Below, in pieces: positions 1 through 55,700 of a stretch of 64,000 bases of DNA. The notes beneath the pieces are model-generated. The model searched no databases. It was not told the origin of the DNA and saw only the letters and a list, made by a program, of their open reading frames with translations. Source of the stretch: Eledone cirrhosa (Eukaryota); assembly GCA_964016885.1 (NCBI GenBank), contig OZ024754.1, positions 10,850,001 through 10,914,000 of the forward strand, given 5' to 3'. Positions within the stretch are counted from its first letter, which is position 1. Every line of letters begins with the position of its first letter. A program made the translations under genes and the position numbers.

Positions 1-1830
1 CATCTGCTCTGTGGTGAGAGTGAACGGTCACCTGTCGGAACCGTTCAACATCATGCGCTCGGTCCGCCAAGGATGTCCCCTCTCGTCCCTCTTGTACGTA
101 TTGACTCTCGAGCCATTACTGCACAAACTGGAGACGTTGAGGGGAGTCCCGCGCGAACTAGGATGCGGAAGATCCGTGTCAGCATATGCGGACGATGTCA
201 CCGTAGTGGTGTCGAACGCCAAACACATCGAGGCGATCGGCACTACACTAAGAGAATACGAAGCGGTGACAGGAGCAATGATCAACCAGGAAAAGTCAGT
301 GGGCCTGCAGCTCGGCACCTGGAGAGGCAGGTCCATGCCGTCCAACAGCGTCGTCGGGCGCTGGATGGACGGACCGGTTAAATTGCTAGGGGTCTGGTTC
401 GGTCCGGACCTCCAGACGGACAAAAACTGGGACGAGGTGACGAGCAGGGTGGCTTCTCTCACCCAGAAATGGGCGGAGAGGAAGCTATCCCTGAAAGGTC
501 GAGCGGAGGTGGCTAACGCGTACATCGCGTCTGTCATCTGCTACCGCCTAACCGTCGTACCTTGTCCTAAGCCTCGCCTGACTGCGCTGGAGCGTTTGCT
601 CTTTCGCTTTTTGTGGAAGGGACGTGCTCCGATGGTCAGGCGGTCCATCTGTTGTCAACACCCGCTACGTGGAGGGCTGGGCATGCCGTGGCTGATGATG
701 CGCAGGCACGCGCTCAGGCTACGACATCTCCACCTCTTCCTCGACGGTGATCAGGTGTGGTCGCCGTTTGCTAGACGCGTTTTTCCCCAGCTCGTTTCCT
801 TGACGGAGCTGCAGTCCTGGGTCAAGCGAAGACCGAGAGGGAGCGCCTGGAGACTGGAATGTTTTCAGGCGCTCACAGCCCTCGACCAATCGGGCAATGT
901 GATCGGTGGAAACTCCACCTCGGCGTTCTATAGAGGATTAGTGGAGGGGAAGAGCGACGACGTACTTGGGGAAACTCTAGGCGTCGACGAAAATCAACTA
1001 GCCAATCTCTTCGGAAGAACTTTCGGGCCAGGGCCTATGGACAACTTCCAGAAATCTCTGGCCTGGCAGTGCTACCGAGGAGCCTTGCCAGTTCGGGATA
1101 AACTCTACAGGCATGGAGGTGCCGTCAGCCGGGCATGTCCGAGATGCGCGCAGGGCGACGAAACCGTCCTGCACGCACTCGTCCAGTGTCCGAAAATTGC
1201 TGACTTGTGGGTTTATGTCGAACACCTGCTGTCGCGTTTAGGACGGATCCAGCTATCATCTGAGTCCATCGTGAGGATTGCCCCGCCCTCCTCCTTTAGC
1301 CGGGAAGGGCAGGCAGTTTTTATCTGTCTGGTGGCCATGGCGAAAGAGATAGTATGGTGGACACGTTTGAAAGGGCTGAAGACGAGCACTTACCTCTTCG
1401 GTGATGCTCTGATTGACTTTTTCAAATTTCATTTGAAAAGGAAAATCAGAGTAGAGAGGGAAGTGCTCTCTTCCCAGCATTTTGTTGAAAGATGGGTGAG
1501 AGAAGCAAGAATGGCCCGAGTGAATGGGCCGACTCTGAGTATATATCTGTAAACTAAAGGTGGAAAACTGGGAGAGGGCACTTGCCTTGGTGGTCAGGGT
1601 CATTGTGGCTTTTTACTGGGCTTTCTCCACAAATGTCCCTCCGAAGTCTCCCCCCTATTGGGGAATTTTTCATTGTTATTTTCATTGTTATTTTTGTTAC
1701 ATCCTCTGTTTTTGTTTTTTTACACGCAGAAATGCCCATTTGTACCGTCCTGCATTGTCCTGCACTGTCCTTAATGTCTACTTTATGTAAACCCTTGTGG
1801 TTAATAAAGAAATCATTATTATCATTATTA

Positions 1831-4680: not shown

Positions 4681-5050
4681 CTAGAGTGACTAACATCCTT
4701 TACTTGCTAAGTCTAACATCAATTATGTTAACATATCATGGATTTACTATTTAGTTTCTCTAATGTCCATGATCATCATCATCATCACCACCACCATTTA
4801 ATGTACATTTTCCATGCTAACATAGGTTAGACAGGTCCTGTTGTGAGACAATTCAGATCAGGTGACTGTGTCTTGTTCACACAACAATTTCTGGTTTGGT
4901 TTCTACAGCTGGATGCCCTTCTTTACACCAAACACTGGACTGAGTGTTTACAGCATGGACTGAGTGCTTTCTATCGTAGCACCAAAATGACCACCCTATG
5001 TTAACATATATTATCTTTACTAACTAGTTTTGTTTAACATTATTTCTAAC

Positions 5051-6145
5051 GGTGGATTGGCAAGTATCGGTAGAGGGTCGGACGCCATACTTTGAGGCAT
5101 AGAGTTACGGCCCTTTATGGTCTGAGTTCAAATCCCGCCGAGGTTAACTTTGCCTTTCATCCTTACGGGGTCGATAAAATAAAGCACCAGTAATGCTCTG
5201 GGTAATTGCTGGCCTTGTGCCAAAAGTAGAAACAATTATTTTTAATGGTGGGTTTGGCAGTATTGGTAGAGGGCTGGACACCATGCATTGCAGCATAGAG
5301 TTACGCCCCTTTATGATCTGAGTTCAGATCCCGCCGAAGTAAACTTTGCCTTTCATCCTTACGGAGTCAATAAAATAAAGTACCAGTAATGCACTGGAGT
5401 AATTGCTGGCCTTGTGCCAAAAGTAGAAACAAGTATTTCTAACATATATTATGTATTGCTAATATATAGTTTGTCTCATATCTAATAATATTATTTTGTT
5501 ATGTAGGCGGTGGATTGGCAGTATCGGTGGAGGGTCGGACGCCATGCTTTTCAGCATAGTTACGTCCCTTTACGATCTGAGTTCAAATCCCGCCGAGGTT
5601 GACTTTGCCTTTCATCCTTACGGGGTCGATAAAATAAAGTACCAGTAATGCACTGGAGTAATTGCTGGCCTTGTGCCAAAAGTAGAAACAAGTATTTCTA
5701 ACATATATTATGTATTGCTAATATATAGTCTCATATCTAATAATATTATTTTGTTATGTAGGCGGTGGATTGGCAGTATCGGTGGAGGGTCGGACGCCAT
5801 GCTTTTCAGCATAGTTACGTCCCTTTACGATCTGAGTTCAAATCCCGCCGAGGTTGACTTTGCCTTTCATCCTTACGGGGTCGATAAAATAAAGTACCAG
5901 TAATGCACTGGGTAATTGCTGGCCTTGTGCCAAAAGTAGAAACAATTATTTTTAATGGTGGGTTTGGCAGTATTGGTAGAGGGCTGGACACCATGCATTG
6001 CAGCATAGAGTTACGCCCCTTTATGATCTGAGTTCAAATCCCGCCGAGGTTGACTTTGCCTTTCATCCTTACGGGGTCGATAAAAATAAAGTACCAGTAA
6101 TGCACTGGGTAATTGCTGGCCTTGTGCCTAAAGTAGAAACAATTA
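5051..6145 (+). mobile_element. Five head-to-tail copies of a tRNA-derived SINE with a Meta-SINE-like central domain
   Basis: Copies start near 5051, 5247, 5506, 5761 and 5957; A-box-like TGGCAGTATCGG, B box GAGTTCAAATCC, central GACTTTGCCTTTCATCCTTACGGGGTCGATAAAATAAAGTACCAG. Confidence 0.85.
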
Positions 6146-6236
6146 TTTTGTTATGTAGCATTCTTGTGTTAAACACATTTGAAATGTGACTTCAAACATT
6201 AATCTTTTCCTTCTGTTGTCCTACATGTTGCATTTC

Positions 6237-7640: not shown

Positions 7641-7890
7641 AAGATTGCATATTGATGGTGGTTAGGATAGTCAAATCCTGTAGCATAGTTGCAAGGTTGT
7701 AAAAGTTTCATGAGGAAATTTTCTTGCTCTTAAAATGTGGGTATTACCTGTCATTGTTATTGTGATATGGGATATGGACGCAGTGCTGGACTCACCTGTA
7801 AGCTAAATAAGGCATAGCTTAGCAGCACACACCTGTGGGGCCTCATTTTTAAAATATATTTTTATCTTATCATTAGTTTGTATTATTTAA

Positions 7891-7940
<50 letters not shown>

Positions 7941-8200
7941 TAATGATTTAGTGTTAAATAATACAAACTAATGATAAGATAAAAATATATTTTAAAAATG
8001 AGGCCCCACAGGTGTGTGCTGCTAAGCTATGCCTTATTTAGCTTACAGGTGAGTCCAGCACTGCGTCCATATCCCATATCACAATAACAATGACAGGTAA
8101 TACCCACATTTTAAGAGCAAGAAAATTTCCTCATGAAACTTTTACAACCTTGCAACTATGCTACAGGATTTGACTATCCTAACTACCATCAATATGCAAT

Positions 8201-8203
<3 letters not shown>
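7641..8203. repeat. Near-perfect fold-back inverted repeat, arms about 255 bp (7641-7895 and 7949-8203), (TA)n in the spacer
   Basis: AAGATTGCATATTGATGG...TTTAACACTA is the reverse complement of TAGTGTTAAA...CCATCAATATGCAATCTT. Confidence 0.93.
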
Positions 8204-8240: not shown

Positions 8241-8506
8241 CCAGGTGATGTGTTGTTTCCTTGAGCAAGACACTTTATTTCCCATTGCTCCAGTTTACTC
8301 AGCCGTAGAAATGAAATGATATGGACTGGGGTCCCTATCATACCACTGCAAAGTGGTCGTGGAGATGCCATGGTAAAAAAGCTCCCAGCCCACACTGTAA
8401 ATGAGGTTAGGAAGGGAATCCAGCTGTAGAAATCAAGCCAGAATCAGTTCCCGTTCCACCCTTGCAAGCAGGGAAAAGCGGACGTAAAATGATGATGATG
8501 ATGATG
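8241..8506 (+). mobile_element. 5'-truncated CORE-type SINE with RTE-like tail and (GAT)n
   Basis: CCTTGAGCAAGACACTTTA core; AGGAAGGGAATCCAGCTGTAGAAA; GGACGTAAAATGATGATG end. Confidence 0.75.
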
Positions 8507-8522
8507 ATATATATATATATTT

Positions 8523-8648
8523 AATATAGAAATGGCTTCTACATGACTAGAACTGTTTCATTCAAAGGAAATCATCAGGGAAGCAGCCTTCCTGATGATT
8601 TCCTTCAAATGAAACGGTTCTAGTCCTGTAGAACCCATTTCTATATTA
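8523..8648. repeat. Short fold-back element with degenerate hammerhead cores on both arms
   Basis: Arms are reverse complements; CTGATGA...GAAAC on + (8592) and on - (about 8578). Confidence 0.7.
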
Positions 8649-8746
8649 GATATTTATACTCTGCTATGTATTGAGTACCTTACTTACTGTGGTTACCCCT
8701 GATTAAACCCAACACACACACACACACATATACATATATATATATA

Positions 8747-8960
8747 TCATCATCATCATCATTCGTCAACTACTGTCGAGATGATGGATCTCACTCTCAT
8801 GCCCCAGAATCCCCTGTCCCCCATCGCCACCCTCAGGTCCTGTCTACTGATCCCCGTATCCCTAGAGATAACGTCAGGGAATGACAGCTTCCTACTCCTA
8901 GTCAGGCTGGAGTCAGGGTTCCAGAGCAAGAGAGCGGATATGATTTCATTGCTGGCATAT
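8747..8960 (-). mobile_element. 3' end of an RTE-like LINE with (GAT)n tail
   Basis: Minus strand reads LLLWNPDSSLTRSRKLSFPDVISRDTGISRQDLRVAMGDRGFW...*, then GATGATGAT. Confidence 0.7.
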
Positions 8961-9117
8961 TAGGATTGGTGCTCTGAAATAGCGATGTATACATGAATGT
9001 ATGTATAGTATATTTGGCAATATACTGTATGTTTAATTAAAAACATTTAGAAGACCATATGCTATCGGTTTTAAAGTAGTGACTATGTCACTTCTTTTCG
9101 GCGAAAGAAGGGAGAGA

Positions 9118-9159
9118 AGCTGACAGTCTGTTTCACGCTGGTTGCCGTTCATCAGAGCC
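9118..9159 (-). ncRNA. Minimal type I hammerhead ribozyme motif
   Basis: Minus strand GGCT-CTGATGA-ACG(GCAACCAG)CGT-GAAA-CAGACTG-TC-AGCT: intact core, stems I/II/III, GUC triplet. Confidence 0.8.
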
Positions 9160-9427
9160 ACGCACCCCTGCTTCCACTGACAATTATAGAAGCTGGATTC
9201 TTATAGAATTCCAGTAATAATCAGGAGCTGATTATACAGAGCGATTGCCGGTCCAGCAAAAATTAGGTATTAGGATTGGTGCTCTGAAATAGCGATGTAT
9301 ACGTGAATGTATGTATAGTATATTTGGCAATATACCGTATGTTTAATTAAAATATATAATTGTTTCTACTTTTGGCACAAGGCCAACAATTACCCAGTAT
9401 ATTGCCAAATATACTATACATACATAT

Positions 9428-9924
<497 letters not shown>

Positions 9925-12524: not shown

Positions 12525-12607
12525 TGGGCTGTACAGAAGAGTTCCTGAACAATTTGAAGCCTGGGGTTCGTGTGAAACGAGGGCCACACTGGAAATGGGG
12601 TAACCAG
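12525..12607 (+). CDS. Exon A, MIB/HERC2 N-half (GCTEEFLNNLKPGVRVKRGPHWKWGNQ)
   Basis: T-rich tract TTTGTAG acceptor; CAG|GTAAGA donor; phase 1 to 0; G-x-R-V-x-R-G-x-x-W-x-W-G-x-Q motif. Confidence 0.9.
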
Positions 12608-12727: not shown

Positions 12728-12926
12728 AGTACAGATTAAAAGTTTAATAAAAAAAATCTCAGCTTATACAGCCTGCCTTTCATTTTTAGAGTGAACCCTT
12801 TAGCGGCCAATAGGTTAGCCCATATGTCACCTGCAATGCTAACACCAATGGCTGCTCCCTCCTCTTGGGCATATGTGTTTCCATTAAAGGTGGCATAGCA
12901 TTGCAGGTGACATAGCTAACCTATTC

Positions 12927-13450
12927 ATGGTATGGTGGGACAATAAACTTAAACTTAAACTTAAAGAACAATTAGAAGACATCAACCTCTTAACCCTGAT
13001 AATGTACTCCCGCTACGTTGATGATATAAACATTGTAGTAAAAACACCCCCACTAGAGAACAGTCATGGAATTAGAGAAAAACACCATGGAAAGCATCAG
13101 CAAATAGCTAACTCCATCCACCAGAGTATTAGAGTTACTATAGACTACCCAAGCAAACACCCCAACCATCGATTACCTGTACTAGACACAGAGCTCTGGT
13201 TAGAAACCATTAATAACAAAAAACAAATCCTCCATTCCCATTATACCAAACCCATGACTTCCAAATATCTGATCCACCGAAAGTCAGCTGTTTTGGATCA
13301 CACCAAAATCAACACACTGATTGCGGATTTGGTACGAGTGATGAGAAACGTGTCCCGCATGTGCAACCCCAAAGAACTAGAGAGACACATACAACACTTC
13401 ATCTATCTCTGGTTACAATCAGAGAGATAAAATCAGAGTATATAGAGGAG
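12927..13450 (+). mobile_element. Penelope-like element RT/thumb fragment (intronic, degenerate) with an inverted segment upstream
   Basis: YSRYVDDI, LPVLDTELW and HYTKPMTSKYLIHRKSA motifs; inverted repeat 12810-12846 versus 12889-12923. Confidence 0.8.
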
Positions 13451-13807
13451 CCAGAACCAAATGGGAAAAAATGGGAAATAATGATACAAATGGGACCTCA
13501 TAGTTTATATATAACTGTATACAAACAGCCCTAATTGAGACCTCCTATGTATATATATATTGAAAATTCAGGACCCCAACAGCCGAGCTCCTCCTGTTTC
13601 AACAGTTGGAGTTAAGATCTAGCTGTTGAAATGGCAGGAGCTCAGTCGTCGAGGTCCCAATTTTTTCATATTACCCACTCTACTACCCCAAGTATCAAGT
13701 ACTCTGGTGAGTAATGGTCTAACTGGTTTTTACGGCACCCATTTTGATTTATATATATATTCTTTCTCACAAAAATAGATATTAACAACTAGATTTCTTT
13801 ATCCTAG

Positions 13808-13952
13808 GATGGTGGTGTTGGCAGCCTAGGAACTGTAACTGAAAGAAAAACATCAAATGGATGGGTCTCCGTGAAATGGACCAATGGACATACAAACTTA
13901 TATCGTGTTGGTTTCGAGAAAAACTGTGATTTGGATATTGTCGGTCACAATT
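13808..13952 (+). CDS. Exon B, MIB/HERC2 C-half (DGGVGSLGTVTERKTSNGWVSVKWTNGHTNLYRVGFEKNCDLDIVGHN)
   Basis: CCTAG acceptor, GTAAGT donor, phase 0 to 1; DGG-x-G-x-x-GTV...V-x-W-x-x-G-x-x-N-x-YR-x-G...DL motif. Confidence 0.92.
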
Positions 13953-18530: not shown

Positions 18531-19369
18531 GTAGCTTTTAATGTGTTTATTATCAGGGCTATCTTTTTGTGTGTATGTATATGTGTATGTTTGTATATTT
18601 CTTGTGTATTTTTTTTCGGTTTTCTTTCTTTCCTTACAATTGTCTATCTTTCAATTTCTCCTCTCTCTCTCTCTCTCTCATTCTATATTCCGATGAATGA
18701 CTAACGTCCAAAACGTTAAGATATGTTTCCTACAATATCAAATGTTACACAAATATATGCATGCAATATCCTGTAACAACTGAGGGAATCATAGGGCAGC
18801 GTATTGACATACAGCATTTCTTGGGCATCTTTAAGCCTGGCAGAGCCCATTTCCCCTCCAACAGATCTCTTTGAGAGAATAATAGAGAGTGAGAGAATGG
18901 AAGTGAGAAAGAGATATAGAGGCAGAATCAACCCCAGTAATAGACTGGTACCTTTTTTTATCGACCTTGAATGGATGAAAGGCAAAGCTGACTTCTGCAG
19001 AATTTGAACTCAGAGAGCAGAAAGCCAAAACTTATACCACAAAGCATTCTATCCGATGTTCTAATGACTCAACTCCTTATTATATATATATATATATATA
19101 TATACATATTTATTAAAATAACAGATTAAAGTTTAAGCAAAGAATCTTAACGGGATCTTCTGAAACTCAGATCCCGTTAAGGGTGAAAGCAGCGATTCTT
19201 TGCTTAAACTTTAATCTGTTATATTAATAAATATTTGCTCTACAGTTTTTATATATATTTATATATATAATATCCTTATCGAGCCCTCTTCGGATTTTAG
19301 TCTCTTCACATTTATTATTATTATTACACACACACACACACACACACACATATATGTATATATATATAT

Positions 19370-19767
19370 GAAGGCGCATGGTTTAGTGGTTAGAGCATTG
19401 GGCTTGCAATCGAAATGTTGTGAGTTCAATACTCGGACCGGGTGATGTGTTGTTTCCTTGAGCAAGACACTTTATTTCACATTGCTCCAGTTTACTCAGC
19501 TGTAGAAATGAGATGATAGGACTAGGGTCCCTATCATTCCACTGTAAAGTGGACGTGTAGGCACCACAGAAAAAAGCACCCAGCACTCACTGTAAATGAA
19601 GTTGGTGTTAGGAAGGGCATCCAGCTGTAGAAATTAAGCCAGAATCAGTTCCCGTATGAGCAAGACAAGGTCAGGCGGCCGGACACTGCCCACAACAGGA
19701 CAACCCGTCTAACCCATGCTAGTGTGGAAGAACAGACGTAAAACGGTGATGATGATGATGATGATGA
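19370..19767 (+). mobile_element. Full-length CORE-type tRNA SINE with RTE-derived tail
   Basis: A box TGGTTTAGTGG, B box GAGTTCAATAC, core CCTTGAGCAAGACAC, tail shared with RTE 3' UTR, (GAT)n. Confidence 0.85.
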
Positions 19768-20142
19768 TATATATATGTGTGTGTGTATGTAAAAGGTAAA
19801 CAGAAATAACAACACAAACGGTACAATATATGGAAGGAATATATTAGGTTAATGCTTGAAATAGCAGGAAGGGGGTCTTAATGTTTCGGACGCTAATCCT
19901 TCATCAGAAGAAAGAATGAGAAATTAGAAAGATTGAAGGGACGGGTTGAGTCGAATTGGAAAAAAATGTTTTTAGAGAAAAATAACAGGTCCATTTATGT
20001 TGCCATCTATTATGTATGTATATATACTACATGAAAGATAGACATACTATTTCTCTCCTACAAATTCATTCACTCATAAACATATATACATGCAGATATA
20101 AAGATTGGATATATACTTTTTGTTGTTTTATCTTTTGAACAG

Positions 20143-20295
20143 GGTCAGGCAACAAAGGGGAAATATATGGAAGTATTTGTCAGAATAAAATTGGTACCTA
20201 CCACTCCAGAAATAACAGCCTTTTTGTAGAATTCTCTTTAAAAAATGAAACTGAAAGAGCAGGCTTTTTAGCCAGTTTCCACAGTGAAGAACCAG
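20143..20295 (+). CDS. Exon E, CUB1 part 3 (GSGNKGEIYGSICQNKIGTYHSRNNSLFVEFSLKNETERAGFLASFHSEEP)
   Basis: GAACAG acceptor, CAG|GTAAAT donor, phase 1 to 1; CUB C-terminal S-x-x-N-x-L-x-V-x-F...GF-x-A-x-F pattern. Confidence 0.9.
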
Positions 20296-21014
20296 GTAAA
20301 TTGAAGAATTTTTTATTCTGAGATTTTATTATTTATTTGATTCTTACCATCTATATAGAAAACTGGTCATGGATTCCAAACTCCCTCCCAAATCTAGAAT
20401 GCTGTTAAACATGAGACCTGGGAAACCACAAGAAAAGACATTTAAAGCTAAAGATAGCCATAAAGATAGTTCAGGAATGAATATGATAGAAAACTACTTT
20501 CCCTGTACCAAACCTAAACGGTACTTTTCATTGAAACACTGAGAAATAGAAAAGAGTAGCAACAGTAGGCACTTTGACATAAGAAATACCAACAGTTGAG
20601 TCAGTTTTCTTTGTTATGGATTGAAAGCTTTTGTTAATTATACATATCTATATCCACTGTTTAGAGCAATATTTCTAAACTGAAGTCCATATGGTCCCTG
20701 GAGATCGATATAAGACTTCTGGGGATCAACAGTGGTATTTTAGGAGTCCACAACAATAATTGCTTTCAAAGAAAATATCTTAAGCCTTAGAGAAAGAAAA
20801 CAATTTTAAAAATTAAACAAATAAAACAATTAACCAAAGCAGTTGGTAAAAAAATTCCGTAGGGAATTAATAAAAAAAAAATGATACTGGAGAAAAACAA
20901 AAGCAAAGACAACTGGATTTAATGGTGATGTAGTGTAAATAAATATATGATGTATATATACTTAACTGTTAAAACAGTTAAGTATATACAAGATTCATTG
21001 TTCTTCAATTTCAG

Positions 21015-25384: not shown

Positions 25385-26460
25385 TAGTAAGGAAAGGGAA
25401 TGACCACAACCAGAATACCCCTACCCATGGGTCTGATAAATGTTGACCAACACAGTAAGGAAAAGGAACGACCACAACCAGAATACCCCTACCCATGGGT
25501 CTGATAAATGTTGACCAACACAGTAAGGAAAAGGAATGACCACAACCAGAATACCCCTACCCATGGGTCTGATAAATGTTGACCAACACAGTAAGGAAAA
25601 GGAATGACCACAACCAGAATACCCCTACCCATGGGTCTGATAAATGTTGACCAACACAGTAAGGAAAAGGAATGACCACAACCAGAATACCCCTACCCAT
25701 GGGTCTGATAAATGTTGACCAACACAGTAAGGAAAAGGAATGACTCCAACCAGAATACTCCTACCCATGGGTCTGATAAATGTTGACCAACACAGTAAGG
25801 AAAAGGAATGACCCCAACCAGAATACTCCTACCCATGGGTCTGATAAATGTTGACCAACACAGTAAGGAAAAGGAACGACCACAACCAGAATACTCCTAC
25901 CCATGGGTCTGATAAATGTTGACCAACACAGTAAGGAAAAGGAATGACCCCAACCAGAATACCCCTACCCATGGGTCTGATAAATGTTGACCAACACAGT
26001 AAGGAAAAGGAACGACCACAACCAGAATACTCCTACCCATGGGTCTGATAAATGTTGACCAACACAGTAAGGAAAAGGAATGACCCCAACCAGAATACTC
26101 CTACCCATGGGTCTGATAAATGTTGACCAACACAGTAAGGAAAAGGAATGACCACAACCAGAATACTCCTACCCATGGGTCTGATAAATGTTGACCAACA
26201 CAGTAAGGAAAAGGAATGACCACAACCAGAATACCCCTACCCATGGGTCTGATAAATGTTGACCAACACAGTAAGGAAAAGGAATGACCACAACCAGAAT
26301 ACCCCTACCCATGGGTCTGATAAATGTTGACCAACACAGTAAGGAAAAGGAATGACCACAACCAGAATACCCCTACCCATGGGTCTGATAAATGTTGACC
26401 AACACAGTAAGGAAAAGGAATGACCACAACCAGAATACACCTACCCATGGGTCTGACAAT
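25385..26460 (-). repeat. 68-bp satellite, about 16 copies, inverted relative to the 46.7-64 kb array
   Basis: Unit GTAAGGAAAAGGAATGACCACAACCAGAATACCCCTACCCATGGGTCTGATAAATGTTGACCAACACA. Confidence 0.95.
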
Positions 26461-26753
26461 GTTGATCAGGGGCTAAACAACATCAGTTAATAGAATTGGT
26501 TCTCAAAAGTGGAACAGAAACACAGTAGGTTTCTTATACTGGACTTGATATTAGAAACTTGATTGAAATAAATAATTGTCATAAATATTATAGAATAATA
26601 AACTTTATATAGCAATTTCCTTTATTAAATGTTCAGCCATTTTGTAAAAATAACGAGTATAACTTATTGTATTCTGAAAATTTGATTAAAGTCAGTAATC
26701 TGGAGATGGACGGACTCTCATAGATTAATTTGAGCATTTATTTAATTTCGAAA

Positions 26754-32554: not shown

Positions 32555-32686
32555 GAATTTATCCATTGGAAACTGGTGGTTCTATTCAACAATTTTCTAT
32601 GAGAGCTAAAAAGTTTCACATTGAATATTTATTGATAACTCGCTGTAGTAAATTCTCCATACTTGTTTATGTTAAAAGAGTACCAA
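32555..32686 (+). CDS. Exon K, CUB3 part 3 (RIYPLETGGSIQQFSMRAKKFHIEYLLITRCSKFSILVYVKRVP)
   Basis: TTTGTAG acceptor, GTAAGT donor, phase 1 to 1. Confidence 0.8.
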
Positions 32687-32790
32687 GTAAGTTGCCTACC
32701 AATATTTCTTCCTTATCTGATTTCTGTCTAAATTAAGGAGCCAATATTTTTTTAAAGGGTAGTTATATGCAGCTCTCAGCTGCATATAGT

Positions 32791-33340
32791 CTGGCTGGCT
32801 GTGTGGTTAACTGGTTCTATACACAAACACAAAACCACATAACCAGGATGGCTGGCTGTGTGGTTAACTGGTTCTATACACAAACACAAAACCACACAAC
32901 CAGGATGGCTGACTGAATGGTTAACTGGTTCTATACACAAACACAAAACCACATAACCAGGATGGCTGGCTGTGTGGTTAACTGGTTCTATACACAAACA
33001 CAAAACCACACAACCAGGATGGCTGACTGAATGGTTAACTGGTTATATACACAAACACAAAACCACACAACCAGGATGGCTGACTGAATGGTTAACTGGT
33101 TATATACACAAACACAAAACCACACAACCAGGATGGCTGACTGAATGGTTAACTGGTTATATACACAAACACAAAACCACACAACCAGGATGGCTGACTG
33201 AATGGTTAACTGGTTATATACACAAACACAAAACCACACAACCAGGATGGCTGACTGAATGGTTAACTGGTTATATACACAAACACAAAACCACACAACC
33301 AGGATGGCTAGCTGAGTGGTTAACCAGTTCTATACACAAC
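32791..33340. repeat. Intronic minisatellite, 57-bp unit, about 9.5 copies
   Basis: TGGTTAACTGGTT(C/A)TATACACAAACACAAAACCACACAACCAGGATGGCTG tandem. Confidence 0.92.
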
Positions 33341-43358: not shown

Positions 43359-43435
43359 ACGAAGGAATTGTGGTAAGGAACCAGATGGACCATAACACAC
43401 CAGAGTACTCAATACTTGTGGTAGTAGAGTGGGTA

Positions 43436-43555
43436 ATAGGAAAAGGTATGACCCCGATGGCGGAACTCAAGCCGTTTCGACGGCTATTTCTGGACTCTAA
43501 GTCCAGAAATAGCCGTCGAAACGGTTTGAGCTCTGCCGTCGGGGTCATACCTTTT

Positions 43556-43562
<7 letters not shown>
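43436..43562. repeat. Near-perfect palindrome in a (TA)n-flanked element; related element at about 13565-13735
   Basis: ATAGGAAAAGGTATGACCCCGA...TCGGGGTCATACCTTTTCCTAT; flank 43375-43435 is similar to the reverse complement of 13671-13730. Confidence 0.85.
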
Positions 43563-43603
<41 letters not shown>

Positions 43604-44119
43604 CAACCCTTATTGAGTCCTCTACATTGAGTTCAAATGAAAAAGATATATGTATATATAGAGAGAAAGAGCCATATATTGTATAAGAAACACAGTATAT
43701 TGTATATATACCAAGAATGTGTACACAGGTGGAAATATATACCAAGAATGTGTACACAGGTGGAATCATATGTGAAACCTTATAGCGCTATTTCAAATAG
43801 AATTTTGTGTTGAGAAACACAAAATTCTAAACATATCTGATATGTTTTGATTCATTATTTGTATAAGGGCGGTGGATTGGCAGTATCGGTAGAGGGTCGG
43901 ACACCATGCTTTCCAGCATGGTTACGTCCCTTTACGATCTGAGTTCAAATCCCGCCGAGGTTGACTTTGCCTTTCATCCTTACGGGGTCGATAAAATAAA
44001 GTACCAGTAATGCACTGGGTATTTGCTGGCCTTGTGCCTAAAGTAGAAACAATTATTTGTATATTATATATATATAGAGAGAGATTACAGTAATCAAAGT
44101 TCAGTTTAAGTAATTTATT

Positions 44120-44166: not shown

Positions 44167-44654
44167 GTTATTTATAACATACTTGACCTCCTTTTCAACC
44201 CAAGAGACACATATATATATACGATATTAAACAAATGGAAACTATATTTATAAAACCATATTTATTTCATTATACATATTTCAGGGATACCATATAAATA
44301 TAGTTTCCATTTGTTTAATATCGTATATCTACTCCAAAACTTGTTGAGTGCTTTATATCAGTTATAAAATATTTACTCGTTGTAACCCAACAATTTTAAA
44401 TAAAACTTTTGCATATATATATATATATATATATATATGAAAAAGATATAGTTTTTTACAAAAACAATATTAAAAATTTTGAAACATAAGTAATTTATTA
44501 TAATACACAGTACAAAAGGTTATGTTTCATACTTCTTTGAAATATTTTTTCAAACAAGTATGAGTACAAAATCCTATTGTGTTAAAAATAATAATTACTC
44601 ATGAAGCAAATTATTCATTAAAGTAATTACCAAATACGTTTTTACATTAAATAT

Positions 44655-44699: not shown

Positions 44700-46237
44700 G
44701 TTATTTATAAGTAAACGTCTCATTATAAAACCCACCAAACCGCCCAACAACCAGCAGTCAGAGAATTTGTTTACATATAAAAAAGGTTATTACTCTCTAA
44801 TACTTGAAGACATCTGAATGAAAAGATAAAATATCAACCTAGAGAAGAAATTACACATATCAACCATAATCAAACATTACTTGATATATTTTCTATAGTA
44901 TTTTCACGGCGAAGGCTTTACCTCAAATAATATCGAATATATGAAATTTTAATATTATATATTTTGAGAACAATACCTTAACGTCAGGAGAGAGAGAGAG
45001 AGAGAGATCCAGAGACAGTGAAAGATTTAGAGAGAGAGAGAGAGAGAGTGAAAGAAAACGAGCAACAGAAAGAGAGATAGGTATGCTTAGTGACTTGAAC
45101 AAACAAACGTTAATTATAATTATTAGTATTCTTCTTGTATGCTTCTTTAAATATTACTAGCAGAAAACCCATCCTTGGGGTGGTTTTCTGCTAGCATGTG
45201 TAGTGTGTATATTGATATTATACGCAGGTATATATACATGTAGATATGTTACATCAAATAAAATCGTAATTGACAATATACACAGAAATTGAACGAAGAC
45301 GTTGTTACACTGTCTTATGTAATCAGTTACGTAATCCATGATACATTAAAAAAAGACGATATTATATATAAACTGCATTAGGAAAAAATTAGTGACAGAA
45401 AATTAGCATGTTTATTTAAGCGTTCGCCAACCGGAAGTGTTGACATTTCAGAATTTTTAAAGAAGTGAATCTATAAATAAACAAAATATATTTAATCAAC
45501 AACCACGAAATTTAGTAGATAAATTATGTAATATTCATAATTATTTATTCAAAGTAATCCAACTTATTTTACTAATGGGATAAACAATTATAAACCGGAC
45601 GCAGTCTCGCGCTCCGCCCTTTATTATAGAATAGATTCGAGACACTTCAAAAAATACATGTTTATAAGAAAAATAAATATAGATAAATAAAATCGCACGG
45701 ATTCAAATAAATAGATAAATATTATGATTTTAATCATTATTACTGTGAGTTTTAAATATTAGATAAACGTGTGTTATATTTTGTTTACAATATAGGCTTA
45801 ACAGATGCTAAATAAATTTAAATTATATATCGAGTAACATACATATATTGTATATTTAATAATAATTGTTTCTGCTATTGGCACAAGGCCAGCAATTATT
45901 CCAGTACATTACTGGTACTTTATGCTAAGGATGGCATCCGATTCTTTACCGATACTGCCATTTAATAATAATAATATCGATAAATAAATACGAAAAACAA
46001 TGGATATATAATATATATACTCACTAAATTACGTAACTGACCTTGTTACAATTTTCAATATAGAATTCTTAGGTTTCTGTACATGCTCTGGTGTCTGTGT
46101 AAATTAAACATAAAAATAAAAACACACACAGACACCCGGATGTAACACATGCGCAAACTAAGCACACAACACACACAAAAACAAGATGGCGTAGGACAGA
46201 ACAAAGGAGAGGCACAAAAACAAAGAAAATAATCCCA

Positions 46238-46280
46238 GTCACTGAAGAGGTCACAGAATGTGTGACGAAAGAACTTTGAC
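46238..46280 (+). ncRNA. Minimal type I hammerhead ribozyme motif
   Basis: GTCA-CTGAAGAG-GTCACA(GAATG)TGTGAC-GAAA-GAAC-TT-TGAC: 4-bp stem I, 6-bp stem II, very short stem III, CUU triplet. Confidence 0.72.
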
Positions 46281-46711
46281 AATATATGAACAACCGTCCG
46301 GTTGTGGAACCAACCAACCAGCCGGAAATTTATAAATTTAATTTATAATAAATTGGAGTGAAAGCAACTGGTGCATGTGTTTCTTATTGGCAACATGACC
46401 CTCCCAAAGTATAACAATATCGGTTTCAACACACGTTTTCAGATAAAGAATCTTGCTAAACAAATTCAGAAACGAAATATATATATATATATATGTGTGT
46501 ATGTATATATAAATGTTCAGAATACAATAAGTTATACTCGTTATTTTTACAAAATGGCTGAACATTTAATAAAGGAAATTGCTATATAAAGTTTATTATT
46601 CTATAATATTTATGACAATTATTTATTTCAATCAGTTTCCTACTGTGTTTCTGTTCCACTTTTGAGAACCAATTCTATTAACTGATGTTGTTTAGCCCCT
46701 GATAAACATTG

Positions 46712-49700
46712 TCAGACCCATGGGTAGGTGTATTCTGGTTGTGGTCATTCCTTTTCCTTACTGTGTTGGTCAACATTTATCAGACCCATGGGTAGGTGTA
46801 TTCTGGTTGTGGTCATTCCTTTTCCTTACTGTGTTGGTCAACATTTATCAGACCCATGGGTAGGAGTATTCTGGTTGTGGTCATTCCTTTTCCTTACTGT
46901 GTTGGTCAACATTTATCAGACCCATGGGTAGGAGTATTCTGGTTGTGGTCATTCCTTTTCCTTACTGTGTTGGTCAACATTTATCAGACCCATGGGTAGG
47001 AGTATTCTGGTTGTGGTCATTCCTTTTCCTTACTGTGTTGGTCAACATTTATCAGACCCATGGGTAGGAGTATTCTGGTTGTGGTCATTCCTTTTCCTTA
47101 CTGTGTTGGTCAACATTTATCAGACCCATGGGTAGGAGTATTCTGGTTGTGGTCATTCCTTTTCCTTACTGTGTTGGTCAACATTTATCAGACCCATGGG
47201 TAGGAGTATTCTGGTTGTGGTCGTTCCTTTTCCTTACTGTGTTGGTCAACATTTATCAGACCCATGGGTAGGAGTATTCTGGTTGTGGTCATTCCTTTTC
47301 CTTACTGTGTTGGTCAACATTTATCAGACCCATGGGTAGGAGTATTCTGGTTGTGGTCGTTCCTTTTCCTTACTGTGTTGGTCAACATTTATCAGACCCA
47401 TGGGTAGGAGTATTCTGGTTGGGGTCATTCCCTTTCCTTACTGTGTTGGTCAACATTTATCAGACCCATGGGTAGGAGTATTCTGGTTGTGGTCATTCCC
47501 TTTCCTTACTGTGTTGGTCAACATTTATCAGACCCATGGGTAGGAGTATTCTGGTTGTGGTCATTCCCTTTCCTTACTGTGTTGGTCAACATTTATCAGA
47601 CCCATGGGTAGGAGTATTCTGGTTGTGGTCATTCCCTTTCCTTACTGTGTTGGTCAACATTTATCAGACCCATGGGTAGGAGTATTCTGGTTGTGGTCAT
47701 TCCCTTTCCTTACTGTGTTGGTCAACATTTATCAGACCCATGGGTAGGAGTATTCTGGTTGTGGTCATTCCCTTTCCTTACTGTGTTGGTCAACATTTAT
47801 CAGACCCATGGGTAGGAGTATTCTGGTTGTGGTCATTCCCTTTCCTTACTGTGTTGGTCAACATTTATCAGACCCATGGGTAGGAGTATTCTGGTTGTGG
47901 TCATTCCCTTTCCTTACTGTGTTGGTCAACATTTATCAGACCCATGGGTAGGAGTATTCTGGTTGTGGTCATTCCCTTTCCTTACTGTGTTGGTCAACAT
48001 TTATCAGACCCATGGGTAGGAGTATTCTGGTTGTGGTCATTCCCTTTCCTTACTGTGTTGGTCAACATTTATCAGACCCATGGGTAGGAGTATTCTGGTT
48101 GTGGTCATTCCCTTTCCTTACTGTGTTGGTCAACATTTATCAGACCCATGGGTAGGAGTATTCTGGTTGTGGTCATTCCCTTTCCTTACTGTGTTGGTCA
48201 ACATTTATCAGACCCATGGGTAGGGGTATTCTGGTTGTGGTCGTTCCTTTTCCTTACTGTGTTGGTCAACATTTATCAGACCCATGGGTAGGAGTATTCT
48301 GGTTGTGGTCATTCCCTTTCCTTACTGTGTTGGTCAACATTTATCAGACCCATGGGTAGGAGTATTCTGGTTGTGGTCATTCCCTTTCCTTACTGTGTTG
48401 GTCAACATTTATCAGACCCATGGGTAGGAGTATTCTGGTTGTGGTCATTCCCTTTCCTTACTGTGTTGGTCAACATTTATCAGACCCATGGGTAGGAGTA
48501 TTCTGGTTGTGGTCATTCCTTTTCCTTACTGTGTTGGTCAACATTTATCAGACCCATGGGTAGGAGTATTCTGGTTGTGGTCATTCCTTTTCCTTACTGT
48601 GTTGGTCAACATTTATCAGACCCATGGGTAGGAGTATTCTGGTTGTGGTCATTCCCTTTCCTTACTGTGTTGGTCAACATTTATCAGACCCATGGGTAGG
48701 AGTATTCTGGTTGTGGTCATTCCCTTTCCTTACTGTGTTGGTCAACATTTATCAGACCCATGGGTAGGAGTATTCTGGTTGTGGTCATTCCCTTTCCTTA
48801 CTGTGTTGGTCAACATTTATCAGACCCATGGGTAGGGGTATTCTGGTTGTGGTCATTCCTTTTCCTTACTGTGTTGGTCAACATTTATCAGACCCATGGG
48901 TAGGAGTATTCTGGTTGTGGTCATTCCCTTTCCTTACTGTGTTGGTCAACATTTATCAGACCCATGGGTAGGAGTATTCTGGTTGTGGTCATTCCCTTTC
49001 CTTACTGTGTTGGTCAACATTTATCAGACCCATGGGTAGGGGTATTCTGGTTGTGGTCATTCCCTTTCCTTACTGTGTTGGTCAACATTTATCAGACCCA
49101 TGGGTAGGAGTATTCTGGTTGTGGTCATTCCTTTTCCTTACTGTGTTGGTCAACATTTATCAGACCCATGGGTAGGAGTATTCTGGTTGTGGTCATTCCT
49201 TTTCCTTACTGTGTTGGTCAACATTTATCAGACCCATGGGTAGGAGTATTCTGGTTGTGGTCATTCCCTTTCCTTACTGTGTTGGTCAACATTTATCAGA
49301 CCCATGGGTAGGAGTATTCTGGTTGTGGTCATTCCCTTTCCTTACTGTGTTGGTCAACATTTATCAGACCCATGGGTAGGAGTATTCTGGTTGTGGTCAT
49401 TCCCTTTCCTTACTGTGTTGGTCAACATTTATCAGACCCATGGGTAGGGGTATTCTGGTTGTGGTCATTCCTTTTCCTTACTGTGTTGGTCAACATTTAT
49501 CAGACCTATGGGTAGGAGTATTCTGGTTGTGGTCATTCCCTTTCCTTACTGTGTTGGTCAACATTTATCAGACCCATGGGTAGGAGTATTCTGGTTGGGG
49601 TCATTCCTTTTCCTTACTGTGTTGGTCAACATTTATCAGACCTATGGGTAGGAGTATTCTGGTTGTGGTCATTCCCTTTCCTTACTGTGTTGGTCAACAT

Positions 49701-52700
49701 TTATCAGACCCATGGGTAGGAGTATTCTGGTTGTGGTCATTCCTTTTCCTTACTGTGTTGGTCAACATTTATCAGACCTATGGGTAGGAGTATTCTGGTT
49801 GTGGTCATTCCCTTTCCTTACTGTGTTGGTCAACATTTATCAGACCCATGGGTAGGAGTATTCTGGTTGTGGTCATTCCTTTTCCTTACTGTGTTGGTCA
49901 ACATTTATCAGACCTATGGGTAGGAGTATTCTGGTTGTGGTCATTCCCTTTCCTTACTGTGTTGGTCAACATTTATCAGACCCATGGGTAGGAGTATTCT
50001 GGTTGGGGTCATTCCTTTTCCTTACTGTGTTGGTCAACATTTATCAGACCCATGGGTAGGAGTATTCTGGTTGTGGTCATTCCCTTTCCTTACTGTGTTG
50101 GTCAACATTTATCAGACCCATGGGTAGGAGTATTCTGGTTGTGGTCATTCCCTTTCCTTACTGTGTTGGTCAACATTTATCAGACCCATGGGTAGGAGTA
50201 TTCTGGTTGTGGTCATTCCCTTTCCTTACTGTGTTGGTCAACATTTATCAGACCCATGGGTAGGAGTATTCTGGTTGTGGTCATTCCCTTTCCTTACTGT
50301 GTTGGTCAACATTTATCAGACCCATGGGTAGGGGTATTCTGGTTGTGGTCATTCCCTTTCCTTACTGTGTTGGTCAACATTTATCAGACCCATGGGTAGG
50401 GGTATTCTGGTTGTGGTCATTCCCTTTCCTTACTGTGTTGGTCAACATTTATCAGACCCATGGGTAGGGGTATTCTGGTTGTGGTCATTCCCTTTCCTTA
50501 CTGTGTTGGTCAACATTTATCAGACCCATGGGTAGGGGTATTCTGGTTGTGGTCATTCCCTTTCCTTACTGTGTTGGTCAACATTTATCAGACCCATGGG
50601 TAGGAGTATTCTGGTTGTGGTCATTCCCTTTCCTTACTGTGTTGGTCAACATTTATCAGACCCATGGGTAGGGGTATTCTGGTTGTGGTCATTCCCTTTC
50701 CTTACTGTGTTGGTCAACATTTATCAGACCCATGGGTAGGAGTATTCTGGTTGTGGTCATTCCCTTTCCTTACTGTGTTGGTCAACATTTATCAGACCCA
50801 TGGGTAGGAGTATTCTGGTTGTGGTCATTCCCTTTCCTTACTGTGTTGGTCAACATTTATCAGACCCATGGGTAGGAGTATTCTGGTTGTGGTCATTCCC
50901 TTTCCTTACTGTGTTGGTCAACATTTATCAGACCCATGGGTAGGGGTATTCTGGTTGTGGTCATTCCCTTTCCTTACTGTGTTGGTCAACATTTATCAGA
51001 CCCATGGGTAGGGGTATTCTGGTTGTGGTCGTTCCTTTTCCTTACTGTGTTGGTCAACATTTATCAGACCCATGGGTAGGAGTATTCTGGTTGTGGTCAT
51101 TCCCTTTCCTTACTGTGTTGGTCAACATTTATCAGACCCATGGGTAGGGGTATTCTGGTTGTGGTCGTTCCTTTTCCTTACTGTGTTGGTCAACATTTAT
51201 CAGACCCATGGGTAGGAGTATTCTGGTTGTGGTCATTCCCTTTCCTTACTGTGTTGGTCAACATTTATCAGACCCATGGGTAGGAGTATTCTGGTTGTGG
51301 TCATTCCCTTTCCTTACTGTGTTGGTCAACATTTATCAGACCCATGGGTAGGAGTATTCTGGTTGTGGTCATTCCCTTTCCTTACTGTGTTGGTCAACAT
51401 TTATCAGACCCATGGGTAGGGGTATTCTGGTTGTGGTCATTCCCTTTCCTTACTGTGTTGGTCAACATTTATCAGACCCATGGGTAGGAGTATTCTGGTT
51501 GTGGTCATTCCCTTTCCTTACTGTGTTGGTCAACATTTATCAGACCCATGGGTAGGAGTATTCTGGTTGTGGTCATTCCCTTTCCTTACTGTGTTGGTCA
51601 ACATTTATCAGACCCATGGGTAGGGGTATTCTGGTTGTGGTCATTCCCTTTCCTTACTGTGTTGGTCAACATTTATCAGACCCATGGGTAGGAGTATTCT
51701 GGTTGTGGTCATTCCCTTTCCTTACTGTGTTGGTCAACATTTATCAGACCCATGGGTAGGAGTATTCTGGTTGTGGTCATTCCCTTTCCTTACTGTGTTG
51801 GTCAACATTTATCAGACCCATGGGTAGGAGTATTCTGGTTGTGGTCATTCCCTTTCCTTACTGTGTTGGTCAACATTTATCAGACCCATGGGTAGGGGTA
51901 TTCTGGTTGTGGTCATTCCCTTTCCTTACTGTGTTGGTCAACATTTATCAGACCCATGGGTAGGAGTATTCTGGTTGTGGTCATTCCCTTTCCTTACTGT
52001 GTTGGTCAACATTTATCAGACCCATGGGTAGGAGTATTCTGGTTGTGGTCATTCCCTTTCCTTACTGTGTTGGTCAACATTTATCAGACCCATGGGTAGG
52101 GGTATTCTGGTTGTGGTCATTCCCTTTCCTTACTGTGTTGGTCAACATTTATCAGACCCATGGGTAGGAGTATTCTGGTTGTGGTCATTCCCTTTCCTTA
52201 CTGTGTTGGTCAACATTTATCAGACCCATGGGTAGGGGTATTCTGGTTGTGGTCGTTCCTTTTCCTTACTGTGTTGGTCAACATTTATCAGACCCATGGG
52301 TAGGAGTATTCTGGTTGTGGTCATTCCCTTTCCTTACTGTGTTGGTCAACATTTATCAGACCCATGGGTAGGAGTATTCTGGTTGTGGTCATTCCCTTTC
52401 CTTACTGTGTTGGTCAACATTTATCAGACCCATGGGTAGGAGTATTCTGGTTGTGGTCATTCCCTTTCCTTACTGTGTTGGTCAACATTTATCAGACCCA
52501 TGGGTAGGGGTATTCTGGTTGTGGTCATTCCCTTTCCTTACTGTGTTGGTCAACATTTATCAGACCCATGGGTAGGAGTATTCTGGTTGTGGTCATTCCC
52601 TTTCCTTACTGTGTTGGTCAACATTTATCAGACCCATGGGTAGGAGTATTCTGGTTGTGGTCATTCCCTTTCCTTACTGTGTTGGTCAACATTTATCAGA

Positions 52701-55700
52701 CCCATGGGTAGGGGTATTCTGGTTGTGGTCATTCCCTTTCCTTACTGTGTTGGTCAACATTTATCAGACCCATGGGTAGGAGTATTCTGGTTGTGGTCAT
52801 TCCCTTTCCTTACTGTGTTGGTCAACATTTATCAGACCCATGGGTAGGGGTATTCTGGTTGTGGTCGTTCCTTTTCCTTACTGTGTTGGTCAACATTTAT
52901 CAGACCCATGGGTAGGGGTATTCTGGTTGTGGTCATTCCCTTTCCTTACTGTGTTGGTCAACATTTATCAGACCCATGGGTAGGAGTATTCTGGTTGTGG
53001 TCATTCCCTTTCCTTACTGTGTTGGTCAACATTTATCAGACCCATGGGTAGGGGTATTCTGGTTGTGGTCGTTCCTTTTCCTTACTGTGTTGGTCAACAT
53101 TTATCAGACCCATGGGTAGGAGTATTCTGGTTGTGGTCATTCCCTTTCCTTACTGTGTTGGTCAACATTTATCAGACCCATGGGTAGGAGTATTCTGGTT
53201 GTGGTCATTCCCTTTCCTTACTGTGTTGGTCAACATTTATCAGACCCATGGGTAGGAGTATTCTGGTTGTGGTCATTCCCTTTCCTTACTGTGTTGGTCA
53301 ACATTTATCAGACCCATGGGTAGGGGTATTCTGGTTGTGGTCATTCCCTTTCCTTACTGTGTTGGTCAACATTTATCAGACCCATGGGTAGGAGTATTCT
53401 GGTTGTGGTCATTCCCTTTCCTTACTGTGTTGGTCAACATTTATCAGACCCATGGGTAGGAGTATTCTGGTTGTGGTCATTCCCTTTCCTTACTGTGTTG
53501 GTCAACATTTATCAGACCCATGGGTAGGGGTATTCTGGTTGTGGTCATTCCCTTTCCTTACTGTGTTGGTCAACATTTATCAGACCCATGGGTAGGAGTA
53601 TTCTGGTTGTGGTCATTCCCTTTCCTTACTGTGTTGGTCAACATTTATCAGACCCATGGGTAGGGGTATTCTGGTTGTGGTCGTTCCTTTTCCTTACTGT
53701 GTTGGTCAACATTTATCAGACCCATGGGTAGGGGTATTCTGGTTGTGGTCATTCCCTTTCCTTACTGTGTTGGTCAACATTTATCAGACCCATGGGTAGG
53801 AGTATTCTGGTTGTGGTCATTCCCTTTCCTTACTGTGTTGGTCAACATTTTATCAGACCCATGGGTAGGAGTATTCTGGTTGTGGTCATTCCCTTTCCTT
53901 ACTGTGTTGGTCAACATTTATCAGACCCATGGGTAGGGGTATTCTGGTTGTGGTCATTCCCTTTCCTTACTGTGTTGGTCAACATTTATCAGACCCATGG
54001 GTAGGAGTATTCTGGTTGTGGTCATTCCCTTTCCTTACTGTGTTGGTCAACATTTATCAGACCCATGGGTAGGGGTATTCTGGTTGTGGTCATTCCCTTT
54101 CACTTACTGTGTTGGTCAACATTTATCAGACCCATGGGTAGGAGTATTTCTGGTTGTGGTCATTCTTCCTTACTGTGTTGGTCAACATTTATCAGACCCA
54201 TGGGTAGGGGTATTCTGGTTGTGGTCATTCCCTTTCCTTACTGTGTTGGTCAACATTTATCAGACCCATGGGTAGGAGTATTCTGGTTGTGGTCATTCCC
54301 TTTCCTTACTGTGTTGGTCAACATTTATCAGACCCATGGGTAGGGGTATTCTGGTTGTGGTCGTTCCTTTTCCTTACTGTGTTGGTCAACATTTATCAGA
54401 CCCATGGGTAGGGGTATTCTGGTTGTGGTCATTCCCTTNNNNNNNNNNNNNNNNNNNNNNNNNNNNNNNNNNNNNNNNNNNNNNNNNNNNNNNNNNNNNN
54501 NNNNNNNNNNNNNNNNNNNNNNNNNNNNNNNNNNNNNNNNNNNNNNNNNNNNNNNNNNNNNNNNNNNNNNNNNNNNNNNNNNNNNNNNNNNNNNNNNNNN
54601 NNNNNNNNNNNNNNNNNNNNNNNNNNNNNNNNNNNNNNTCATTCCCTTTCCTTACTGTGTTGGTCAACATTTATCAGACCCCATGGGTAGAGAGTATTCT
54701 GGTTGTGGTCATTCCCTTTCCTTACTGTGTTGGTCAACATTTATCAGACCCATGGGTAGGGTATTTGGTTGTGGTCATTCCTTTCCTTACTGTGTTGGTC
54801 AACATTTATCAGACCCATGGGTAGGGGTATTCTGGTTGTGGTCGTTCCCTTTCCTTACTGTGTTGGTCAACATTTATCAGACCCATGGGTAGGAGTATTC
54901 TGGTTGTGGTCATTCCCTTTCCTTACTGTGTTGTGTCAACATTTATCAGACCCATGGGTAGGGGTATTCTGGTTGTGGTCGTTCCTTTTCCTTACTGTGT
55001 TGGTCAACATTTATCAGACCCCATGGGTAGGAGTATTCTGGTTGTGGTCATTCCCTTTCCTTACTGTGTTGGTCAACATTTATCAGACCCATGGGTAGGA
55101 GTATTCTGGTTGTGGTCATTCCCTTTCCTTACTGTGTTGGTCAACATTTATCAGACCCATCGGGTAGGAGTATTCTGGTTGTGGTCATTCCCTTTCCTTA
55201 CTGTGTTGGTCAACATTTATCAGACCCATGGGTAGGGGTATTCTGGTTGTGGTCATTCCCTTTCCTTACTGTGTTGGTCAACATTTATCAGACCCATGGG
55301 TAGGAGTATTCTGGTTGTGGTCATTCCCTTTCCTTACTGTGTTGGTCAACATTTATCAGACCCATGGGTAGGAGTATTCTGGTTGTGGTCATTCCCTTTC
55401 CTTACTGTGTTGGTCAACATTTATCAGACCCATGGGTAGGGGTATTCTGGTTGTGGTCATTCCCTTTCCTTACTGTGTTGGTCAACATTTATCAGACCCA
55501 TGGGTAGGAGTATTCTGGTTGTGGTCATTCCCTTTCCTTACTGTGTTGGTCAACATTTATCAGACTCCATGTGTAGGAGTATTCTGGTTGTGGTCATTCC
55601 CCTTTCCTTACTGTGTTGGTCAACATTTATCAGACCCATGGGTAGGAGTATTCTGGTTGTGGTCATTCCCTTTCCTTACTGTGTTGGTCAACATTTATCA

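Follow-up and report, generated by a model that had tools for sequence, protein, structure and literature searches.

The window analysed here, a stretch of 64,000 nucleotides from the octopus Eledone cirrhosa, contains a 395-bp locus (8958-9352) in which a type I hammerhead motif lies on the minus strand between two direct repeats and outside both of them (Table 1). The repeats are identical at 83 of 85 positions (98%) and are spaced 310 bp apart, and the locus therefore amounts to 1.27 units of 310 bp with one ribozyme and one predicted cut site, 164 nt from its 3' edge and 231 nt from its 5' edge. Repeats of ~85 bp with this period had been described in a first-pass annotation of the same DNA and are confirmed, except that the left copy ends at 9042, one base before the 9043 given there. 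The left repeat differs from the right at 8993 and 9026, both differences being CpG-type transitions with the CpG kept in the right copy, which is consistent with a fairly young duplication. Around the locus are pieces of other repeats which the first-pass annotation did not include, namely the 3' end of a LINE, a piece of a dispersed repeat, a SINE-like element and the flanking TA microsatellites.

Table 1. Features of the hammerhead locus and its immediate surroundings, in window coordinates
Feature	Positions	Strand	Remarks
(CA)n/(TA)n microsatellite, left edge of cluster	8713..8745	.	
5'-truncated 3' end of non-LTR (LINE) retrotransposon	8746..8957	-	last ~65 RT ORF codons, stop, (GAT)n tail
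Left 85-bp direct repeat	8958..9042	.	3' end of element in ribozyme sense
225-bp single-copy part of 310-bp unit	9043..9267	-	ribozyme and several short hairpins
Full ribozyme domain, with distal mismatched helix I extension	9103..9175	-	constrained fold; HH9 alignment
Type I hammerhead core and proximal helices	9118..9159	-	predicted cleavage after GUC, between 9122 and 9121
Right 85-bp direct repeat	9268..9352	.	5' end in ribozyme sense
3' piece of a different dispersed repeat, 44 bp	9356..9399	-	12 further matches in window at E<1e-4
31-bp inverted copy of repeat positions 40-70	9395..9425	.	
SINE-like dispersed repeat, 340 bp, (GAT)n tail	9426..9765	-	14 further matches in window
(TA)78 microsatellite, right edge of cluster	9766..9922	.	

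The locus appears to encode no protein, as had been claimed from the first inspection. The only frame over the ribozyme has 55 codons from stop to stop and no Pfam match, and the 39 residues that could be read from an AUG inside the core were rejected as coding in the absence of a family match. Neither the unit nor its 225-bp part has a second copy in the 64-kb window. Two patterns drawn from the unit had no match in prokaryotic genome contigs and blastn against phages and plasmids found none, so an origin from prokaryotes or their mobile elements was rejected. At the junction of the unit (9260-9279 and 8958-8969), the presumed 3' end of the RNA, there are short TTAGG/TTGG repeats of loosely telomere-like appearance which are too short to be given weight.

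The 31-bp inverted piece, also reported in the first inspection, is identical throughout to 8997-9027 (31/31) and over 29 nt to the right repeat. It lies on the 5' side of the unit, ~42 bp from the right repeat, and the gap is mostly occupied by a different dispersed repeat. Since it overlaps the 44-bp piece of that repeat by a few bases, it may be a fold-back formed at that insertion or a 5' inversion of the kind seen in Penelope-like elements (PLEs). In a PLE pseudo-LTR (pLTR) the inverted truncated copy stands directly at the 5' end with a tail of 30-40 bp, whereas the piece here is 31 bp long and set back behind another repeat, and it may not be a Penelope-type inversion.

On the minus strand all core positions of a type I hammerhead are present (CUGANGA, GAAA, UH), with three helices of which helix I is open. 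The core CUGAUGA (9155-9149) leads into a helix II of 3 bp (9148-9146/9137-9135) with an 8-nt loop, the GAAA is at 9134-9131, and helix III, ACAG-A-CUGU (9131-9123), is palindromic, being self-complementary around one A. C17 of the GUC is at 9122, and the proximal part of helix I has 4 bp (9159-9156/9121-9118). In a constrained fold helix I runs on through mismatches to about 9175/9103, and loop II aligns to the loop of the HH9 consensus; the geometry is for these reasons that of a canonical-sized hammerhead, known from tandem retrozymes and not from the pLTRs of PLEs, and the term 'minimal' applied to it at first was mistaken. The description of the motif as intact holds for the core but not beyond it, where there are an A10.1-U11.1 pair, a G.G at the fourth position of helix II and a U.U in helix I, departures that may be native or may reflect decay.

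The significance of the motif was assessed with descriptors whose thresholds were set after the motif had been seen. A strict descriptor (helices I, II and III of at least 4, 3 and 3 bp) matched once in the window, at this motif, and in none of 300 block-wise dinucleotide-shuffled windows, a result which bears out the report of a minus-strand hammerhead at 9118-9159. A loose descriptor (3, 2 and 2 bp) found a match in 25 of the 300 shuffled windows. With a relaxed descriptor three motifs were found in the window (at 9155, 19907 and 46242), while among 500 shuffles 8 contained a single motif and not one contained two. Rfam returned no match at the gathering score anywhere in the window, and no hammerhead family was among the 32 matches at E<=10 in 8400-9500; a search confined to 116 bases gave a weak match to Hammerhead_HH9 of 12.7 bits (E 1.2) against a cut-off of 52. 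Matches to miRNA families in the Rfam output were far below cut-off and were set aside as hairpin artefacts. That the motif is a chance match within hairpin-rich repetitive DNA is suggested by the lack of an Rfam match at cut-off, by the behaviour of the loose descriptor and by an MFE structure of the monomer that differs from the ribozyme fold. The strict descriptor, however, matched none of the shuffles, and the complete core is combined with a helix III that is palindromic, an extended helix I and a period of retrozyme size, and chance is regarded as highly improbable.

The energy model gives the active hammerhead fold of the monomer -14.7 kcal/mol against -20.7 kcal/mol for an inactive fold in which the core is trapped, and the probability of the hammerhead helix III was <=0.01 in all four contexts tried. 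Two active monomers reach -29.4 kcal/mol and a strand-swapped double hammerhead -40.5 kcal/mol, as compared with -41.4 for two inactive monomers and -43.8 for the free co-fold. The single hammerhead is thus predicted to be inactive and cleavage to depend on a dimer, the double hammerhead being nearly isoenergetic with the inactive monomers; because the model ignores tertiary contacts, dimer dependence stands as a prediction only. To that extent the first reading, a type I hammerhead whose helix III is palindromic and which can cleave as a dimer, is supported. Dependence on a dimer has been reported for ribozymes with a short palindromic helix III, including those of amphibian retrozymes (PMC7229834). 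Eight of nine predicted dimers described in a recent preprint did not cleave in vitro (bioRxiv 10.64898/2026.07.22.740005).

Folded as a 310-nt circle, the ribozyme strand had a z score of -3.3 with 62% of its bases paired, and 2 of 200 shuffles were as good; the opposite strand had a z score of -3.1. Five of 47 control stretches of 310 nt, one of which overlaps the locus, folded as well as the unit or better, and the modelled stability of the circle may be taken as weak evidence for a retrozyme RNA. Pairing between the repeat and the unique part was equalled in 96 of 200 shuffles on the ribozyme strand (13 of 200 on the opposite strand), and as it is no better than in shuffles on the ribozyme strand, the folding results are no proof that the 85 bp form part of the RNA unit. 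The control run also contained foldback outliers with z scores of -6 to -24, at 19101-19410, 32601-32910, 43401-43710 and 44301-44610.

Apparent traces of PLEs are present in the same window. An RT remnant lies at 12897-13500, 3.5 kb from the unit, 5'-truncated and with an inverted 5' piece at 12808-12888; the best of its 52 matches, and the only one to carry an organism name, is an Octopus vulgaris protein (66%). A full-length homologue, P0025, groups with RVT_1/GIY-YIG clusters and has by eye a GIY-YIG-like region at its C-terminus, and on these resemblances we infer that the remnant is Penelope-like. Comparison of the unit with it found no meaningful similarity, the one match being of 40 bp and at chance level (E 1.0). 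The other two motifs found with the relaxed descriptor are of the minimal type. That at about 19872-19913 (-) has the extra base after A9 and the G10.1-C11.1 pair typical of PLEs, a 4-bp helix I and a mismatch at 15.2-16.2; that at 46236-46283 (+), with C3 at 46242, has the extra base after A9, a 6-bp helix II and a context that looks like a pLTR, to which no ORF is assigned. A 140-bp foldback at 8516-8655, 88% self-complementary, carries a CUGAUGA...GAAAC core without a helix I in each arm and may represent two decayed PLE ends in inverted arrangement.

The RT remnant and its inverted piece (12808-13500) sit between the two halves of a MIB_HERC2 domain. Exon-like pieces are present on the plus strand at ~12525-12607, ~13808-13945 and ~20139-20318, with matches to MIB_HERC2 (the second piece at E 4e-12) and, weakly, to CUB (E 0.001). 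The ribozyme is antisense to this downstream gene and so would not cut its pre-mRNA. A search for exons of a host gene across the element yielded none (0 of 4 candidates), and the 123 of 231 frames scanned contained no host-gene domain 5' of 8958, where the only match was to a retroelement RT. The output of a sigma-70 scan was disregarded as irrelevant for an animal genome.

The reading that we favour, with a probability of about 0.55, is that 8958-9352 is a stranded cDNA copy of a circular RNA of the non-LTR retrozyme type, made in more than one turn by a Penelope-like RT and inserted into a TA microsatellite. Its observed basis comprises the motif, a redundancy of 85 bp at the termini, the presence of only one ribozyme, the missing ORF, the TA-rich surroundings and the nearby Penelope-like RT remnant. 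With one ribozyme the locus could not be cut at both ends and could not release a circle alone, and it is better read as the product of a circle than, as had first been proposed, as a self-cleaving and circularising monomer in its own right. According to the favoured reading a tandem parent elsewhere in the genome would give rise to a multimeric RNA, in which two ribozymes would exchange strands by way of their palindromic helix III and cleave after GUC, and a host ligase would close the monomer to a circle. The RT would then start on the circle at a point 164 nt downstream of the cleavage site and overrun by 85 nt, the cDNA would be inserted in a TA run, and the LINE 3' end and SINE pieces would have landed later at the same microsatellite. 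RNA from the copy at the locus could be cut no more than once, for which it would need a second molecule acting in trans, and the copy is predicted to have been dead on arrival.

The scheme follows a published model that includes reverse transcription of circles beyond unit length (PMC4209133, PMC7229834), and internal initiation by the RT away from the ribozyme cut, together with AT-rich targeting, has been shown for a PLE of the anole (PMC11167929). PLEs have been described as biased towards insertion in microsatellites and as carrying 5' inversions (PMC8557442), and solo 'monomer' copies of retrozymes are a recognised class (bioRxiv 10.64898/2026.07.22.740005). Against the favoured reading are the departures and mismatches in the hammerhead, the Rfam score below cut-off and the lack of a second unit in the 64 kb, and because of the last of these the tandem parent is something that we infer. 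The control stretches that fold as well as the unit, the pairing of repeat and unique part no better than in shuffles on the ribozyme strand, the lack of similarity to the PLE remnant and the failure of most of the published predicted dimers to cleave also weigh against it.

Non-LTR retrozymes have been characterised as units of 150-450 bp that encode no protein and have a GC content below 45-50% (PMC7229834). Among metazoans, examples of ~350-390 bp are described from Mytilus galloprovincialis, of 220-240 bp from Acropora millepora and of ~330-350 bp, as a satellite, from the axolotl and newt (PMC7229834). The locus resembles these in its canonical-sized type I hammerhead, its ~300-bp unit (GC 0.39), its lack of a coding function and the occurrence of a PLE remnant and two minimal-type motifs in the same window, and it shares with the amphibian motifs the short palindromic helix III and the predicted dependence on a dimer. 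It differs from the metazoan elements in having 1.27 units, one ribozyme, the A10.1-U11.1 pair and a fused LINE 3' end. An active retrozyme has been defined by two or more units in succession with a full ribozyme in every one (bioRxiv 10.64898/2026.07.22.740005), and the locus falls short of this on both counts. In that respect it is like the dispersed solo units treated in the same preprint, of which it may be an example. Those were defined by homology to a tandem family, in a sample that comprised 31 vertebrates, 3 insects and one coral and included no mollusc.

With the pseudo-LTRs of PLEs, as described in PMC4209133, PMC8557442 and PMC11167929, the locus shares the type I topology, a palindromic helix III, a partial tandem arrangement, an AUG in the core and a microsatellite target, and perhaps the inverted piece on the 5' side. 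It nevertheless has no RT/GIY-YIG ORF between the repeats, the intervening 225 bp being non-coding and matched by none of 8 PLE-type proteins, and its ribozyme is outside the repeats. The minimal hammerhead of PLEs has an extra base after A9, a G10.1-C11.1 pair and a long helix II (PMC4209133), while the motif here has no base added after A9, an A-U at 10.1-11.1 and a helix II of 3 bp. On these grounds the label 'pLTR-like' first given to the locus was dropped. Plant LTR retrozymes are similar in having a non-coding unit with a hammerhead and direct repeats, but have type III ribozymes, one in each of their LTRs, unlike the single type I ribozyme found here. The locus is neither a pLTR, nor a plant LTR retrozyme, nor an active retrozyme array, and it likely works like the product of a non-LTR retrozyme.

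The 85-bp redundancy could also have arisen without a 310-nt RNA. In this alternative only the 225-bp ribozyme part was inserted, as a truncated PLE end or another kind of hammerhead repeat, and the 85 bp are a duplication of flanking DNA made at the insertion or later. It accommodates the location of the ribozyme, which is not in the repeats, and the finding that on the ribozyme strand the repeat does not pair significantly with the unique part; the repeats are also AT-rich, and the inverted copy of part of them next door points to local templated copying. Target duplications of animal retrozymes are given as >4 bp (PMC7229834). The hammerhead, however, does not have the minimal traits of PLEs that the two other motifs in the window have, and the 310-bp period is within the typical size range of retrozymes. 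Target-site duplications are, furthermore, usually far shorter than 85 bp. Duplication of the flank is accordingly considered rather unlikely.

Directly left of the left repeat the minus strand encodes, at 8957-8762, the C-terminal ~65 residues of the RT ORF of a non-LTR element. This fragment matched 95 proteins at E<=0.001 in an exhaustive protein search and was missed by a word-index search (0 of 22 candidates). One of its homologues, P0056, has an RVT_1 match at 4.8e-31 and also matches proteins of R2 and LINE-1 whose structures have been solved. From its motifs the element may be of the RTE type. Protein homology begins at 8956 in six of seven tblastn queries and at 8959 with a 24-hit profile, that is at the edge of the repeat, and positions 1-54 of the profile are found nowhere in the window. 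The seventh query, P0054, gave homology through the left repeat, which was rejected as chance since the other six and the profile stop at the repeat edge. On the other side the 44-bp piece of a dispersed repeat begins three bases right of the right repeat and is followed by the inverted piece and the SINE-like element, in which there are matches resembling A and B boxes of pol III promoters (9755-9745 and 9710-9702). ARAGORN found no tRNA gene in it. Pol III read-through from this upstream element into the ribozyme was rejected as unlikely, since runs of T4 (9352-9349) and T5 (9262-9258) precede the ribozyme.

These junctions raise the possibility that the unit was copied by the enzyme of the LINE. 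TPRT would have begun from the (GAT)n tail of the LINE, switched after ~210 nt onto a retrozyme circle, made 1.27 turns and then passed to SINE RNAs, and 8746-9765 would be either one template-switch chimera or a retrozyme that had gained a LINE tail. The LINE end, the ribozyme, the short repeat piece and the SINE-like repeat all have the same orientation, TA microsatellites bracket the block, and there is no TA run between the LINE end and the left repeat. To these may be added the start of LINE homology at the repeat edge and the absence of profile positions 1-54 from the window. The mobiliser of retrozymes is given as 'LINEs or PLEs' in PMC7229834, and 3' ends of RTE type are known as SINE tails, for the origin of which template switching has been invoked (PMC5786205). 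The locus resembles the SINEs and bipartite elements of that study in that a non-coding part is joined directly to a LINE 3' end on the same strand with a microsatellite tail, but the LINE 5' ribozymes described there are HDV-like, whereas here there is a type I hammerhead and the fusion is at one locus. A type I hammerhead would be ill suited as a LINE 5' end, as most of it would stay on the upstream product.

Several observations count against copying by the LINE enzyme. A shared orientation of four pieces has a probability of 1/8 by chance, and SINE-type pieces of the same kinds also stand by themselves in other TA/ATC runs of the window, so that their accumulation in a single microsatellite is nothing unusual. 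The junction lies 164 nt away from the ribozyme cut and hence not at an RNA end, and there is one locus and no second example. The two forms taken together are considered unlikely, and the specific proposal that the block is a snapshot of a LINE RT jumping from its own 3' end to a hammerhead circular RNA and rolling 1.27 turns is unlikely to about the same degree. Were it true, LINEs and not only Penelope elements would mobilise the retrozyme circles of animals, and by capturing a LINE tail a retrozyme could found a ribozyme-headed, SINE-like family in cephalopods. The enzyme that mobilises animal retrozymes is still treated as an open question (PMC7229834; bioRxiv 10.64898/2026.07.22.740005), and the exact junction with the LINE makes that question testable. 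Among the papers listed by a literature search on hammerheads with RTE elements and SINEs, none showed a fusion of a hammerhead with a LINE tail.

As the stranded copy that we favour, the locus is of value as a natural footprint of reverse transcription over more than one unit length, and with it the range of retrozyme-like type I hammerhead repeats likely comes to include an octopus. Literature searches aimed at cephalopods found no cephalopod retrozyme, and the supplement of PMC7229834 may list octopus motifs. In the giant squid genome 235 Rfam hammerhead-1 matches are reported (PMC6962438) and, as retrozymes of a mussel are also published, one in an octopus is expected rather than surprising. 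In the repeat annotation of O. vulgaris PLEs make up 6.83% of the genome, and ribozymes are mentioned neither in its text nor in its supplement (PMC13282606).

Other repeats in the window are abundant. Oppositely oriented copies of one SINE-like repeat (8245-8510 and 9426-9765) bracket the cluster and could pair in a transcript. A second SINE-like repeat, whose 3' piece is that at 9356-9399, forms a tandem run at 5039-6150 with periods of 196 and 255 bp. Next to TA runs there is an inverted duplication of 258 bp (7641-7898 and 7946-8203), 99% complementary and with a 47-nt spacer. At 2-1549 (+) the 3' part of the RT ORF of a non-LTR element (RVT_1, zf-RVT), open over 516 codons, is followed by an (ATT)n tail and looks young. 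At the other end a 68-bp satellite occupies 46705-64000 with 254 copies at 97%, interrupted by a gap of 200 N (54439-54638), and an inverted block of 16 copies of what is apparently the same unit lies at 25386-26465, 20 kb from the main array.
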